DNA from: Thalassobaculaceae bacterium
GTDB lineage: Bacteria > Pseudomonadota > Alphaproteobacteria > Thalassobaculales > Thalassobaculaceae
Reading direction: 5' to 3'
DNA: 64,000 nt
Assembly (NCBI GenBank): GCA_965228875.1
Contig: OZ245843.1
Location: forward strand, 4,880,616 to 4,944,615
A program made the translations under genes and the position numbers. A model generated the notes under the pieces. It was not told the DNA's origin, did not search any database, and worked only from the letters and a program-made list of their open reading frames with translations. Positions 53,753-60,675 of the stretch are shown piece by piece. How positions within the stretch are numbered: the stretch's first letter is position 1; each line of letters opens with the position of its first letter.

Positions 53753-54423
53753 GCGGGGCGCTGAAGGAGGTCCGGCTGCAGACGCCCGTGCGGCACGAGG
53801 ACCTGGTGGGCCTGGAACTCGGTACCGTCGTCTATCTCGACGGCCTGATCTACACGGGGCGCGAGGGCGTCTACAAGAGCGTGCTGGAGGACGGACGCGA
53901 GCCGCCGGAGGATCTGCGGCAGCTCACCAACGTCAATTTCCACTGCTCGCCCGCCGCCTCGGTGAACCATAACGGCAGCCTGACGGTCGGCGCGGTGACG
54001 GCGACGGCGAGCTTCCGGTTCTCCAAGTGGCTGCCCCGATGGTTCGACGTGTCCGGCGCGAAGGTCATCGTCGGCAAGGGCGGCATGAGCGAGAGCGACT
54101 ACCGCAAGGTCTTCGTGCCGGCTGGGGCGATCTACCTGACCACGGTCGGATACGGGACCGGGGCGCTGCTCGGCCGCGGCATCAAGCATGTCCGCGCCGC
54201 CCACTGGCTCGACGAACTCGGCATCGCCCAGGCCATGTGGGTGCTGGAGGTGGAGAAGTTCGGGCCGCTGCTGGTCGAGAGCGATCTGGAGGGCAACTCC
54301 CTGTTCGAGCGGCAGAACCGGATCGTCAACCAGGGCATCGGCCGGCTCTACGAGGGCCTGAAGGCGCCGAGCCTCAGCCGTTACGGCGAGACCGACGACC
54401 GGGGTGAGGAACTGATCGGGTAG
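53749..54423 (+). CDS. Fe-S hydro-lyase beta subunit
   Basis: YTGREG, FHCSP, ATASFRF, IVGKGGM, FGPLLV. Confidence 0.88.
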   Translation: MSGALKEVRLQTPVRHEDLVGLELGTVVYLDGLIYTGREGVYKSVLEDGREPPEDLRQLTNVNFHCSPAASVNHNGSLTVGAVTATASFRFSKWLPRWFDVSGAKVIVGKGGMSESDYRKVFVPAGAIYLTTVGYGTGALLGRGIKHVRAAHWLDELGIAQAMWVLEVEKFGPLLVESDLEGNSLFERQNRIVNQGIGRLYEGLKAPSLSRYGETDDRGEELIG

Positions 54424-54430
54424 GCGGGGA

Positions 54431-54985
54431 TCAGTCGGGCGCGGCCGGCACGCCGGCCCCGATGTCCAGATATCGGCGGCTCAACACGTCGGTCACGGTC
54501 GCCACCCCGTCATGACTGAGGTCGAAATCCGGTCGGTCGTCCGGGTCCGTGGTCGAGCACGAGTAGAACCAGCGCACGCCGCTCGCGTCGCGCAGCGGGA
54601 GGCCGATCGATTCCCGGCGCATGGTCCGCCCGCGCGACGCCACCGTGCGCATGCGCGTGTACATGCCGCAGGGGTACCCGCAGGCGAGGAAGAACGGCCG
54701 GGCGGCCGCGGCCCGCCGCTCGGGTGAGACCATGTCGAGGTAGTTCCGTCCGGTGATCTCCTCGTCATAGGCGGCGGCGACGGTCGAGCCGACCAGACGC
54801 AGCCGGATATCGGTCGGGGAGACCAGTTCGTGGACCACCATGTGCGCCAGCGCGCCGCCCAGCGCCTCCGGCCGGAAGTCGCGGCGTTCCGGCACGAGCC
54901 CGACACGCGGCAGGGCCGTCCAGTGGTCTGCGAAGGCACGCAGAGTCCGGTTGAGATCGAGGATGTCGAAGTCGGGATCGGGCAC
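54431..54985 (-). CDS. Stand-alone PAS-domain protein (PAS_5/DUF1457-like), paralog A
   Basis: W...PERRDFRP, IRLRLVGS, EITGRNYLD, LPL; start uncertain. Confidence 0.75.
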   Translation of the reverse strand: MPDPDFDILDLNRTLRAFADHWTALPRVGLVPERRDFRPEALGGALAHMVVHELVSPTDIRLRLVGSTVAAAYDEEITGRNYLDMVSPERRAAAARPFFLACGYPCGMYTRMRTVASRGRTMRRESIGLPLRDASGVRWFYSCSTTDPDDRPDFDLSHDGVATVTDVLSRRYLDIGAGVPAAPD

Positions 54986-55115
54986 GTCGGGGTCCTGGTC
55001 GCTGCAAGGCAGCCTTCCAGAAGCCGAGCGAGGCCTCAATCCGTAATATCCGACACCGTGGCGGCAGAAACCTGCCGAGGGACCCGAGGCCGTGCTTGCG
55101 GTACCGGCGTCTGTC

Positions 55116-56453
55116 TCAGTCCAGTCCGTAGGCCTCGGGCAGGTCGGGGGTCCGCAGGCCGGTGGTACTGACCCCGATCCCCTTGATGAGGGCCAGATCG
55201 TCCGCGTGCAGGTCCTTGATCGGCTTGAAGCCGCGCCGGCCCAGCACGTTGTTGCCGCCGGCCGATACGGCGACCGCCGAGTCGAAGCCGAACCCGAGCG
55301 TCTCTCGCGACTTGGGGGTCAGCCTGCCGGAGGCATCATCGAAATTCGGATGGATCCGGTCGCTGACGGGGACGTTGACGGTGGTGTGCGGCCCGTAGTC
55401 CGGCAGATTGCCGGGCGAGAAGCTGATGGCATTGTGCAGGCGCTGCGCGGCATCGGTCAGACCTTCCCAGCTATCCGACATCGAGAGATCGCCATAGGCG
55501 GCGTCGATCTCGGCGTTCGACCGGTCGATGGCCTGGTTGCTGTCGATGTTGTTCTTCGACTTCCGCTTGGCGTTGGGCATGAGGCGGAAGGGGACGGGCA
55601 GCCGCATCTCCTCATTGCGGCCCTTCGCGTGCTCGACGAGCTTGTCGAGGACATCGAAGGACTCGGACTGGCCGGCCCAGAACCCGCGCGTCGCGTGCTT
55701 CTCGATGAAGTGCCGGTAGCCGGCGTCCGGCCCGATATGGGTCGCCGCGAGGTCGTTCACCTTTGGCGACCCGACTTCGCTCTGCTTGAAATGGCCGAGC
55801 CGGACGGAGTTCTGAGCCGCGAACAGGTAGGCGACCGACGGGATCTCCTCCCGTCCCAGGCGGATGAAGTCCGGGTCGTCGGGGTCCTCCGCGTCCATGC
55901 GCTGGACGACGGACCCGTGCCGGAACCCGACGCCCATGCGCATCTGCGGCTGAACCTGCCCGGATGCCCGCCGTTCATGCGGAAGAAGCGGCCTCGTCGT
56001 GGCGGCGCCGAGGGGCGCGATCGCCGGTTGGCCGACCGCGGCGCCGGCCATCGCCCGTTGCTCGTGCGGCAACAGCGGTCGGCCGGGGGTTGGCGGTCCG
56101 GAAACGGCGGGCTGGAGCCCGGAACCGCCCGATCGCCCCTGGGCCCGGATTTCGTGCGGCAGCAGCGGGCGGGGGACGGCGGCGGGAAGCGCCGGCATCC
56201 GCGGTTGGCCGACGCCGACCGGCGCAATCGCCCGCGTCTCGTGCGGCAGGAGGGGGCGAGCGGTCGCCGCGGCAAGGGGCTGCATCCGCGGTTGGCCGAC
56301 GTCCGAAGGATGCCCGGCGACCCGCGCTTCATGCGGCAACAGGGCACGGCCTCCCAGAGACGACGGCGGTCCCGCGATCAACGGTTGGCCGACTGCCGCG
56401 GCGCCGAGCGCCCGTTGTTCGTGAGGCAGCATAGGACGGCCCGAACTCGGCAT
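55116..56453 (-). CDS. Hypothetical protein: six N-terminal RPLLPHE repeats plus ~260 aa unknown C-terminal domain
   Basis: Long ORF; ATG at 56453 preceded by GAGG; repeats visible in the translation. Confidence 0.8.
   Translation of the reverse strand: MPSSGRPMLPHEQRALGAAAVGQPLIAGPPSSLGGRALLPHEARVAGHPSDVGQPRMQPLAAATARPLLPHETRAIAPVGVGQPRMPALPAAVPRPLLPHEIRAQGRSGGSGLQPAVSGPPTPGRPLLPHEQRAMAGAAVGQPAIAPLGAATTRPLLPHERRASGQVQPQMRMGVGFRHGSVVQRMDAEDPDDPDFIRLGREEIPSVAYLFAAQNSVRLGHFKQSEVGSPKVNDLAATHIGPDAGYRHFIEKHATRGFWAGQSESFDVLDKLVEHAKGRNEEMRLPVPFRLMPNAKRKSKNNIDSNQAIDRSNAEIDAAYGDLSMSDSWEGLTDAAQRLHNAISFSPGNLPDYGPHTTVNVPVSDRIHPNFDDASGRLTPKSRETLGFGFDSAVAVSAGGNNVLGRRGFKPIKDLHADDLALIKGIGVSTTGLRTPDLPEAYGLD
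55899..56438 (-). repeat. Intragenic tandem repeat, 6 units of ~87-90 bp (RPLLPHExR...QP)
   Basis: Units of 30, 30, 29, 30 and 29 aa plus a final unit ending in VVQR. Confidence 0.9.
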
Positions 56454-56748
56454 GCTGTTGGCCTCGATGGAGAGACGGTGCGTCAATGTCGCTTAATGAT
56501 TGTCTTTGAGCAAGCTTGCGATGCAGGTATCGGTCACAGGGGCGACGCACCGTCCAGTACCGCCGAACCGATGGTCTGGAACTGGTCCGGGTAAAGGGAA
56601 CCATGTGGCAGTCGCTTGAACGGGATCGGTTCAGGTGGAGTCGACCTGGACCATGTGTCGTCGTTTGCATCGTTTTAGGTAGGTCAAACTCAGACGTTTG
56701 CCGCAGCTCAGACACTTTCGGATCGACCTGGATGCCAGGATCAACTTG

Positions 56749-57777
56749 TTATTTTTCCCCGCCTTTCCTGGACAGGTCCCAGCCCTCGCCGCCAAAATTG
56801 AACCTAACCTCTCCAGACCACCCACGTTTTGCCGCTTCGCCGATCGGGGTCCCGTTGAACCTCGGGTCGATCTGAACGAATTCGATCGGACGTGCGTTCA
56901 AATTCTCCAGGTCGGCCTCGAAGTCGGGAATCGTTTCCGAACGTCCCGCATCGGACTGACTCTCGAGTTGTGATCCCTCACCGATGCGCTGGAAGCTTGA
57001 CTCGCTTCGCATGGTGTCACGCTCGGCATCGTAGGATCGCTGGTCGTCCGAATCGCTATATTGATCGTGCTCATTGTTATAGAACGCCGTTGGGTGAGTG
57101 TTCACCGGATCTCTTGTGGATATATTGGAACCTTTGAATCTCAATTGATGGAAAAGTCGAGTGTGATCTCCGAATTCAGTTGTAGTATATCCTTGATTCG
57201 ATTTCATTTTCTCATCGAGTTCGAAAAACTTTTTGGCCTTCTTCGTGCGTTCTCTCGTTACTATGTAAAATTTCCTGTTGGCGTCCGCATAATGGCCTTG
57301 CCCGGACGGATTCCACTTATCATTGCCGCCACCGCCACCGCCACCGCCACCGCCACCGCCACCGCCACCGCCACCGCCACCGCCACCAATGCTGCCGCCT
57401 CGCTCGGCGATCATTGCAGGCTGCACGGCACGTCCGCTGAGCCGGTGAACTGGACTCGGCGCTGAGGGCGGTGCGACACGATGCGCCGTCATGGACTGTC
57501 GCTGTGTGAGAGCAGCGGCACGGCCGGCATCGTGCGTGGGCCGCTGGTTGGCCGCTCCGGCAAGTTGTACGAGAGGCGTGGCTACCGACGCAGACGGGTG
57601 TATCGGCAGCGCTTGACGATGCGGTTGAACGGTCGACGGAAGTGGCTGTGTTGCCCTCGCTTCGTGCGGGAGCAGAGGCCGGTTGGGCATCACCCCATTG
57701 TTCAGTCTTGGCTGTGCTGCCGGACCGTTGATACCGAGCGCACGCAACTCATGCGGCAGGAGCGGCCGATTGACCAT
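56749..57777 (-). CDS. Hypothetical protein: two RPLLPHE repeats, Gly21 linker, low-GC unknown C-terminal domain
   Basis: ATG at 57777 after GGGGAGAG RBS; 342 aa. Confidence 0.78.
   Translation of the reverse strand: MVNRPLLPHELRALGINGPAAQPRLNNGVMPNRPLLPHEARATQPLPSTVQPHRQALPIHPSASVATPLVQLAGAANQRPTHDAGRAAALTQRQSMTAHRVAPPSAPSPVHRLSGRAVQPAMIAERGGSIGGGGGGGGGGGGGGGGGGGGGNDKWNPSGQGHYADANRKFYIVTRERTKKAKKFFELDEKMKSNQGYTTTEFGDHTRLFHQLRFKGSNISTRDPVNTHPTAFYNNEHDQYSDSDDQRSYDAERDTMRSESSFQRIGEGSQLESQSDAGRSETIPDFEADLENLNARPIEFVQIDPRFNGTPIGEAAKRGWSGEVRFNFGGEGWDLSRKGGEK
57328..57387. repeat. Perfect hexanucleotide microsatellite (GCCACC)10 encoding poly-Gly
   Basis: Directly visible; in frame as GGT-GGC on the minus strand. 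Confidence 0.95.
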
Positions 57778-57996
57778 GGCTATACTCTCCCCCAACAGGA
57801 ACACACGATCACAGGAAGGCATATGATCGCGTGAAGCTTTCCCACCTTCAATAGATCAGAGGACGGCCAATAGGTCAGAGGAAGGCGCCCGGTTTAAGGC
57901 GATTGGATCTGAGGCGACCGTGCTCTGCGGACCCGCTAAGTTGAGTATGCGCTGGTGATCCGATCAGCCTTTGGCCGCTGGGTTTCAGAGTTCCCT

Positions 57997-58557
57997 TCAA
58001 TCCGCGAACTCCGGCACGCCCGCTCCGATGTCGATGAAGCGCCGGTCCAGGACCTTCATCACCGTCAGGGCGTCGCGTTCGTCGAAATAGGTTTCCCGCT
58101 CCACCGCCGGGCTGGAGCAGAAGTAGACCAGACGCGCCCGGCCGTCGTCGTCGCGCATGGGAAAGGCGATCGACTCGCGGGTGAGCATCTTCCCGCTCTC
58201 CGTGGTCGAGCGGAGCTTCACGAGCATGCCGGCCGGCTGCTCGCAGACGAGGAAGATCGCCCGGGACGCGATCGGTCGCCGGGACTCCTCCACGAAATCC
58301 AGGTAGTTCCGGCCGGTGATCTCCTGGCCATAGTCGTCCACCACCGCCGTCCCGACGAGGCGGAGGCGGATCTGCTCCGGCGAGATGAGGTCGTGGATCA
58401 CCAGGTTGGGCAGCAGGCCCGCGACCCTGCCCGGATCGAAATCCGCACGGGACGGGATCAGGTCGCGGCAGGGCAGGGACAGCCAGTAACGTGCGAACTC
58501 GACCGAGCGCTCGCCCGCATCCCAAATCGCTGCCAGTACCGACGCGTCCCGTGACAC
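57997..58557 (-). CDS. Stand-alone PAS-domain protein (PAS_5/DUF1457-like), paralog B
   Basis: PSRADFDP, IRLRLVGT, EITGRNYLD, C-terminal IDIGAGVP shared with paralog A; start taken at GTG. Confidence 0.78.
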   Translation of the reverse strand: MSRDASVLAAIWDAGERSVEFARYWLSLPCRDLIPSRADFDPGRVAGLLPNLVIHDLISPEQIRLRLVGTAVVDDYGQEITGRNYLDFVEESRRPIASRAIFLVCEQPAGMLVKLRSTTESGKMLTRESIAFPMRDDDGRARLVYFCSSPAVERETYFDERDALTVMKVLDRRFIDIGAGVPEFAD

Positions 58558-58571
58558 CGCCCCCACCCCCC

Positions 58572-58685
58572 AGAGCAAATCACGATCGGATGGTATCATC
58601 CGATCGTGTGGATTTGCTCTATCGTTAACAGCTTGGAGAGCGATTCACGATGCTGATCGAGTTGACCTGAGCCAATCGCGCTCCA
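58572..58685 (+). repeat. ~115 bp two-hairpin palindromic element (RIME/BRU-RS/MITE-like)
   Basis: agagcaaatcacgatcggatggtatcatccgatcgtgtggatttgctcta, then a second weaker hairpin ending gcgctc. Confidence 0.8.
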
Positions 58686-58734
58686 GCGAGGACCCGACGA
58701 AGACCCAGCGAGGACCGGGGCTGTGCCGACGCCC

Positions 58735-60675
<1,941 letters not shown>

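Follow-up and report, generated by a model that had tools for sequence, protein, structure and literature searches.

How contractile injection machines choose their cargo is an open question. In type VI secretion systems (T6SS), the delivery markers MIX, FIX, RIX, PIX and WHIX occur across many genera, and each is found only once in a protein, as a folded domain or a single region. N-terminal delivery domains marking orphan T6SS effectors are an established concept in the accessible text of the reports on RIX (PMC10435454), WHIX (PMC12135965) and PIX (10.1101/2023.07.16.549128), and as in all five marker classes, the tag described here is an N-terminal region common to unrelated, often orphan proteins scattered over a genome. 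T6SS effectors are reported to carry no universal signal, and DUF4157, whose role is given as unknown, accompanies many effectors of both T6SS and extracellular contractile injection systems (eCIS; accessible parts of PMC8213781 and 10.64898/2026.05.27.728243). Cargos of eCIS (PVC Pdp1/Pnf, AlgoCIS Cgo1/Cgo2) bear loading sequences which are disordered and system-specific; all cargos of a given machine have the sequence in common, and in some of them DUF4157 comes next (10.64898/2026.05.27.728243, in part). Here we describe two tandem genes, W1 and W2, located in a 64,000-nucleotide stretch of the genome of a Thalassobaculaceae bacterium (GCA_965228875.1, contig OZ245843.1, positions 4,880,616 to 4,944,615; hereafter the window), whose products share an N-terminal leader composed of repeated nine-residue motifs. 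The array of nine-residue linear motifs is a candidate tag for effector delivery, and the family that would use it is species-restricted. Unlike the T6SS markers, this tag is a tandem linear-motif array in a predicted disordered leader of one species only, with a putative role in export. For the eCIS loading leaders, unlike the tag, the accessible text of 10.64898/2026.05.27.728243 describes no motif arrays, and no eCIS was found in this genome. The species offers a compact test case for cargo choice.

The two genes and their parts are located as follows.

55116..56453, minus strand: W1, 445 amino acids from the ATG at 56453, with a six-repeat leader and an orphan C-terminal domain
55908..56447, minus strand: W1 leader, six units of ~30 amino acids, each R-[PA]-[LM]-L-P-H-E-x-R plus a Pro/Ala/Gly spacer
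55116..55907, minus strand: W1 C-terminal domain, 263 amino acids, acidic, no family
56749..57777, minus strand: W2, 342 amino acids from the ATG at 57777, with a two-repeat leader, a Gly21 linker and an orphan C-terminal region
57595..57777, minus strand: the two repeat units of W2
57326..57387, no strand: perfect (CCGCCA)x10.3 microsatellite encoding the Gly21 linker of W2; metagenome contigs break here
56749..57321, minus strand: W2 C-terminal region, 190 amino acids, 55-57% G+C against 68% for the genome

The open frame of W1 (55116-56486) reaches a TTG at 56486, and its likely start is the ATG at 56453 with GAGG upstream; that of W2 (56749-57822) offers an alternative ATG at 57822, and translation of W2 probably begins at the ATG at 57777, which follows GGGGGAG. 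Counted from these starts, the motif occurs at residues 6, 36, 66, 95, 125 and 154 of W1 (n=6) and at residues 4 and 33 of W2 (n=2). The spacers between the motifs are rich in Pro, Ala and Gly, and many contain [GV]-Q-P-[RM]. The W1 leader ends with ...GSVVQRMDAED, and the W2 leader passes through ...GRAVQPAMIAERGGSI into 21 glycines. The leaders are very basic (isoelectric point ~12) and the C-terminal parts acidic. No hydrophobic N-terminus, signal peptide or transmembrane helix was found in W1 or W2; the Kyte-Doolittle maximum over 19 residues is 1.06 in W1 and 0.91 in W2, and no member of the family described below exceeds 1.25. The two C-termini give no BLASTP alignment with each other at E ≤ 10. 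Neither protein matches Pfam or NCBIfam, and PADLOC and PHROGs returned nothing meaningful. An earlier sequence-only reading of the window had reported arrays of six and two copies with a period of 29-30 amino acids, the leader ends and the Gly21 linker, the lack of a signal or transmembrane helix, the unrelated C-termini and a repeat outside the named families; the translated minus-strand open reading frames (ORFs), the hydropathy profile, BLASTP and the database searches bear out each of these points.

W1 and W2 belong to a family of seven genes at five loci of the same genome, the other five being distributed over four loci. A six-frame scan of the 4.96-Mb genome with [PA][LMIV]LPHE gave 18 matches, 17 of them within family loci, and a hidden Markov model of 23 repeat units recovered eight ORF pieces at E ≤ 1.1e-5, with the next best of 49,226 ORFs at E 0.031.

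L001:8154-9338: L001 downstream gene, intact, in tandem with the upstream family gene
L001:9338-10340 (genome 3,597,337-3,598,340): L001 upstream gene (L001b), broken and spread over three reading frames
L002:8315-9454, plus strand: L002 paralog, three units, with a HERAH motif in the C-terminal part
L003:8023-9600, minus strand: L003 paralog, three units, with a weak Pribosyltran match (26.9 bits against a cut-off of 26.3)
L004:8700-9875, plus strand: L004 paralog, two units

The six intact frames comprise 342-525 codons; each start has a Shine-Dalgarno-like sequence ahead of it, and the first motif follows 3-13 residues into the protein. No upstream DNA motif is common to the six gene starts. 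The C-terminal regions (263-427 amino acids) are mutually unrelated, the best E value in an all-against-all BLASTP of six being 0.04. A nine-residue motif repeated two to six times is the only thing common to seven otherwise unrelated proteins. The conserved N-terminus with a swappable C-terminus, proposed by the sequence-only reading from two genes, thus extends to seven. It had named the lack of any other occurrence of the repeat as a refuting condition; four further loci of this genome carry the repeat, and no other species searched does. Among 1.84 billion representative proteins, the 23-unit profile matched six at E ≤ 0.001, all near-identical strain versions of the paralogs found here. 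No credible match to the W1 leader turned up in 62 further genomes of this GTDB family, ten of them of the same genus; four matches reached E values of 0.003-0.009, and three of these contained internal stops.

As the 23 units were selected by a regular expression, the invariance of the motif is partly circular; the diversity of its synonymous codons is not. For the invariant R, L, H, E and R, the units use 6, 4, 2, 2 and 5 different codons, respectively, and third-position identity in the motif core is 49%. Tandem Repeats Finder did not detect the W1 and W2 motif arrays as DNA tandem repeats, and DNA similarity among the family loci extends over just 16-33 nt inside the motif-coding parts. 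Since many synonymous codons are used and no DNA tandem repeat is present, conservation acts on the peptide and does not reflect recent DNA duplication: the motif is held under peptide-level constraint. Strain-level substitutions (3 of 128 core, 18 of 481 spacer and 23 of 1492 C-terminal sites) are too few to show additional constraint on the core. A weak literature search found no description of the LLPHE motif, its matches being unrelated words such as CellPhe.

We propose, at about an even chance, that the family consists of T6SS cargo effectors carrying a multivalent N-terminal tag which replaces, and may be derived from, the HExxH helix of DUF4157. W1 and W2 would then be two of seven paralogous effectors. 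Their common part would be a disordered, very basic leader with R-P-L-L-P-H-E-x-R motifs placed mostly ~30 residues apart, which may serve as a multivalent address tag recognised by a T6SS component. The machine would be one of the T6SSs that the species has acquired, most likely the one termed T6SS-3, and the unrelated C-terminal domains would represent the delivered activities. The tag would occupy the position of the zincin-like DUF4157 (HExxH) module of related alphaproteobacterial effectors, and is possibly a reduced and amplified copy of its LL-x-HE helix. What we infer in this proposal is secretion itself, the T6SS used, the receptor of the tag, its descent from DUF4157, and what the C-termini of W1 and W2 do and act upon.

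The genomic context of the L004 paralog points to T6SS-3. Synteny with genomes G049 and G050 breaks at the start of this gene and resumes 26.0 kb later; the intervening block (genome 4,521,635-4,547,659) is absent from both, and the L004 paralog is its end gene, the remainder being a complete T6SS. Convergent with the paralog, the first part of the island encodes a Paar-like DUF4150 protein, DUF3540, a pentapeptide-repeat protein, DUF2169-PPR and VgrG. TssG, TssF, TssE, Hcp, a fused TssB-TssC, TssA, TssM, TssL and a SPOR protein follow, and a TPR protein, TssK and a 152-amino-acid ORF lie at the end on the other strand. The accessible text of PMC13373197 assigns DUF2169/PPR/DUF3540/DUF4150 to spike assembly, as a class III Tvp system, and not to the effectors; the repeat protein is therefore the only candidate effector recognisable in the T6SS-3 island. 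TssC occurs in one of ten other species of the genus and in nine of 62 of the family, and no counterpart of this genome's two other T6SS types was found in the rest of the genus; neither DUF4157 nor the repeat is present in any of the ten. The only relative found for the Paar-like gene was one locus, in Marinibaculum pumilum, where the island is differently laid out and holds no gene with a Pro/Ala-rich leader. The tag might be received by Hcp, by the T6SS-3 TPR protein, by the T6SS-2 adaptor with DUF4123 or by the VgrG tip together with the Paar-like protein; a binding prediction of the repeat-unit alignment with the TPR, DUF4123 and Paar-like proteins gave no answer (score 0.00).

Some features of the T6SS loci were noted in passing. 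The fused TssB-TssC of T6SS-3 is a single 820-amino-acid ORF (VipA + VipB + VipB_2; L023:2826-5288, genome ~4,533,826-4,536,288), and neither ClpV nor TssJ was seen in the 26-kb island. In T6SS-2, VgrG is followed by a DUF4123 adaptor gene with no effector gene next to it (L029:9872-12981, genome ~4,429,870-4,432,980); an OmpA gene and a TonB/ExbBD set lie behind it on the other strand, so the adaptor has no cis effector.

A second line of evidence is provided by the C-terminal 154 amino acids of the broken L001b, which have no Pfam match. Comparison of a single-sequence model of this domain (predicted local distance difference test score, pLDDT, 58.7; predicted template modelling score 0.64) with known structures by VIA-align revealed TseH as the best match (6v98_A, Z 8.9, root-mean-square deviation 3.6 Å over 135 of 154 residues), followed by the MARTX RID domain (Z 6.5), YiiX (6.1) and the Bacillus cysteine peptidase 3kw0 (5.3). 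We take TseH, RID, YiiX and 3kw0 to be permuted papain-like proteins throughout. In its predicted fold the domain may resemble TseH, a T6SS effector of Vibrio cholerae, and the YiiX-like permuted NlpC/P60 hydrolases, and it has a His...Cys pair (AGH...C). It differs from TseH in sequence (9% identity), and the likeness concerns a paralog in a low-confidence model, not W1 or W2. The domain recurs at 48-52% identity, C-terminal to DUF4157, in seven genomes of another alphaproteobacterial family, and the AGH...C pair is invariant in the eight aligned sequences. The distance of the DUF4157-TseH-like gene from tssC was determined in five of these genomes, G499 and G506 being left out: the gene lies ~5 kb downstream on the same strand in three (G289, G484 and G496), 183 kb away in G118 and on another contig in G466. 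In G289 it directly follows TssM-TssA-TssB-TssC-Hcp-TssE-TssF. DUF4157 metallopeptidases have been reported as T6SS cargo and specialised effectors (Wood et al., PMC6899460, in part).

DUF4157 (also eCIS_core or 'PVC-metallopeptidase', PF13699) is similar to the tag in that it stands N-terminal to swappable toxin-like domains and is joined to them by a Pro/Ala-rich linker with Q-P-[KR]; moreover, DUF4157 in the seven genomes and the repeats here both precede the TseH-like cargo domain. Unlike a DUF4157 protein, the family members have no domain of ~80 amino acids, the tag being a nine-residue motif repeated two to six times. PF13699 (~79 positions, 22-bit cut-off) gave no match in W1 or W2 at E ≤ 1 or in L001c, L002, L003, L004 and L001b at E ≤ 5; the genuine DUF4157 gene of the genome scores 92.5 bits with the same model. 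The HExxH helices of DUF4157 read LLGHE, LLAHE or HLPHE, and one subclass reads HLPHE[AL]WHVVQQ. KLLAHELTHVVQQR is the reading in the single DUF4157 protein of this genome, whose N-terminal region contains VIQPR/VIQPK. In a MAFFT alignment, the last L001b unit falls on the DUF4157 helix, in the equivalent place ahead of a Q-P-rich linker and the common cargo domain. Judged from these comparisons, the tag is a replacement standing in the place of DUF4157 and not a DUF4157 member, and it may descend from it. Homology between the two has only weak support. In the most far-reaching version of this idea, a folded zincin-like DUF4157 would have been reduced in this lineage to its active-site-helix peptide (LL-x-HE...R), which was amplified into an array and by itself directs unrelated proteins to a T6SS; we regard this as unlikely. 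If it were true, the part of DUF4157 in effector delivery would be that of a recognition peptide and not of a catalyst, and an effector tag could be as small as nine residues. Independently of the tag, the single DUF4157 gene (L010:856-1920, genome ~4,046,000-4,047,070) lies between GST-like and nitroreductase-like genes, is absent from the ten other species of the genus and encodes no large C-terminal toxin domain. Its product is the only ORF with three [VILMA]QP[RKM] motifs within 150 amino acids, which we note as a lead only; a looser scan for Q-P-[RK...] motifs was unspecific.

A number of results weigh against the proposed T6SS cargo family. Only one of the seven family genes (L004) is encoded in or beside a T6SS, VgrG or PAAR cluster; one of five loci touches a T6SS island, and there the family gene is convergent and not co-directional with the Paar-like gene; W1 and W2 have no T6SS neighbour. 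The co-occurrence of the family with T6SS-2 and T6SS-3 comes from a single lineage, and the profile search of the 1.84 billion representatives detected the repeat in no other T6SS-bearing organism. No cognate immunity gene lies immediately downstream of any member, the downstream neighbours being PAS_5, another family gene, SIMPL, an AMP-binding enzyme, an unassigned 142-amino-acid ORF on the other strand and the Paar-like gene; this absence would predict that the target is not bacterial or that the proteins are not toxic. With 35-55 kDa, the proteins are large for cargo of the Hcp lumen. As to the cargo domain, the L001b model is of low confidence (pLDDT 58.7, from one sequence), Foldseek found nothing significant (best E 0.16), and the carrier of the domain is broken over three frames. 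As to DUF4157, the units read H-E-x-R, and the second His of HExxH is missing in 22 of 23 units (the exception being HELRH in unit 3 of L003), for which reason neither metal binding nor catalysis is expected. Hhalign placed the unit on KLLAHELTHV with a probability of 1.7% over 10 columns, and when shuffling left LLxHE unchanged, 6 of 200 shuffles attained the real mean score (6.77 bits). Together with the missing Pfam match, these values limit the wording to a tag that stands where DUF4157 would and is possibly derived from it.

The evidence can be read in other ways. Linear motifs of this kind may engage a protein of a eukaryotic host or one of the bacterium's own, for scaffolding, localisation or regulation, with any export route or none, and not act as a secretion tag at all. 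We consider this unlikely. In its favour, the motifs are multivalent, evenly spaced and Pro-flanked in a disordered basic region, immunity genes are absent, four of five loci have no secretion-system neighbour, and the locus is present, nearly identical, in several aquatic, seawater, coral and aquaculture metagenome runs. However, the distance from the start to the first motif never exceeds 13 residues, one member belongs to the T6SS-3 island, DUF4157 proteins of T6SS clusters have one of the cargo domains as well, and no candidate partner was identified. The near-identity of the locus across metagenome runs also speaks against an improbable reading of the genes as young lineage-specific orphans of little or no function, whose leader was spread by recombination and is now decaying. 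The restriction of the family to one species would fit such orphans, as would the member broken over three frames, the hypervariable Gly microsatellite and orphan low-G+C tail of W2, and a substitution rate that is not clearly lower in the cores than in the spacers; yet the motif is kept in 23 units despite saturated synonymous sites, and six frames of 342-525 codons with Shine-Dalgarno-like sites remain intact.

Two further explanations had been put forward by the sequence-only reading. It took the leader for a loading tag on eCIS cargo and linked the LPHE motif to DUF4157. Cargos of eCIS are indeed loaded through disordered N-terminal sequences that differ from system to system, and in many of them DUF4157 comes next (accessible parts of 10.64898/2026.05.27.728243 and PMC8213781). 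The genome holds one DUF4157 protein, and in G118, one of the genomes with a DUF4157-TseH-like gene, a tandem of gp19-type tube genes lies ~5 kb from a further DUF4157 gene. We nevertheless judge eCIS delivery to be very improbable, as no eCIS locus was found: the single Phage_sheath_1 gene of the genome lies among terminase, capsid and Mu gp27/gp45/gp48 genes of a Mu-like prophage, the gp19-type tube (PF06841, Phage_T4_gp19) has no match here against two in G118 by the same search, and the DUF4157-TseH-like relatives stand in T6SS operons. What survives of that proposal is a shared tag on swappable cargo, for which the context (the T6SS-3 island, the G289 operon) favours a T6SS, and a link to DUF4157 through its LLAHE and HLPHE helices and the cargo domain found behind it elsewhere. 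Its other suggestion, that the proteins are multi-core precursors of ribosomally synthesised and post-translationally modified peptides from which the repeats are excised, agrees with a short motif at regular spacing and is in our view close to negligible: no maturase, protease or transporter gene lies beside any of the five loci, whose neighbours are of housekeeping type, the C-terminal regions differ from gene to gene and are 263-427 amino acids long, and the motif stands at the extreme N-terminus with no leader peptide before it. If the motif is a loading signal, as we propose for T6SS cargo, it would provide a minimal transplantable tag, a handle on the receptor of the machine and a clue to the role of DUF4157, and would flag six to seven new candidate effector domains without known relatives. 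If the proteins are not secreted, they would still form an unusual species-restricted motif-array family that has arisen by single-gene insertions.

The C-terminal domain of W1 has a strain ortholog (P0003, 99% identical) and only one remote relative, P0009 (36% identity), whose Pro/Ala-rich leader has [VL]QPR repeats, ends with IQRA and lacks LLPHE. Conserved motifs are DLAATH, KLVE[HN]AK and PGNLPDYG..PVSDR.H..DASGR, and the first and third of these suggest a putative enzyme. A structure prediction from a three-row alignment (pLDDT 44) was too poor for a structure search. In searches for related loci with the W1 C-terminal alignment, which may omit records near the window's own genome, 96 pattern matches in genome contigs and 592 in metagenome contigs yielded no confirmed relative. 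The ESM Atlas gave no usable match for the W1 or W2 C-terminus, PDB sequence searches of the C-termini gave chance-level matches only, and the W2 C-terminal region had no relative in any search made.

The surroundings of W1 and W2 comprise the following features.

55040..57996, no strand: species-specific insertion of ~2.96 kb with W1 and W2, between two PAS_5 genes
54431..55039, minus strand: flanking PAS_5 (PF07310) gene, conserved in the genus, not a family member
57997..58599, minus strand: second flanking PAS_5 gene, conserved in the genus
57849..57886, no strand: 19-bp direct repeat in two copies, ~70-110 nt upstream of the W2 start

The segment 55040-57996 is an insertion because the PAS_5 pair, which stands beside acs, is uninterrupted in five genomes of the same genus. 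The genes at L001, L002 and L003 are likewise clean insertions (2.2, ~1.35 and ~1.7 kb, respectively) that interrupt conserved synteny; at the corresponding places, relatives have gaps of 11-324 bp. No mobile-element genes or common flanking repeats were found at the family insertions. A functional link to PAS_5 was considered from the adjacency and dropped, as the PAS_5 pair adjoins in sister species without the insertion; PAS_5, a MopJ-like single PAS domain, has 34 matches in the genome, an unusually large set of paralogs. The 19-bp repeat is possibly a regulatory site and is not common to other family genes. A promoter and terminator scan did not rise above shuffled sequences, and Rfam gave no match over 54000-59500.

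Regarding the other family loci, P0006, an 85-amino-acid protein of a related strain, passes the first break of the L001 upstream gene and ends at the end of the second frame; the break could be decay or a tolerated frame change. A stand-alone gene of the Pesticin family (phage-lysozyme-like toxin) lies ~3.4 kb from the L001 family genes (L001:13727-14305). The C-terminal part of the L004 product has three copies of a ~15-amino-acid element, [YL]R[KR][YFA]M.GTL[LV]D[VL][LF], ~55-65 residues apart and without a family match. Elsewhere in the genome, the Mu-like prophage at L021-L022 (~2,236,000-2,262,000) comprises terminase, capsid, sheath, tube, tape measure, gp45, Baseplate_J and gp48 genes.

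Among the sequencing runs recorded for the W1-W2 locus, none was listed as RNA. Contigs over 55945-56465 (X19) and 57542-57793 (X20) come from runs only guessed to be RNA and were not used as evidence. In run X2, a low-depth metagenome contig (depth 2.3, with 43 letters on its short side) connects 54424 with 58005 and skips 3,580 bases; it may derive from a related organism lacking both the insertion and one PAS_5 gene, or be an artefact. Finally, a dispersed element of ~115 bp with a long palindromic hairpin (58569-58688) overlaps the start of a PAS_5 gene. Dozens of copies with 74-90% identity occur in this genome and in others of the genus, and the element looks like a miniature inverted-repeat transposable element or a repetitive extragenic palindromic type repeat.

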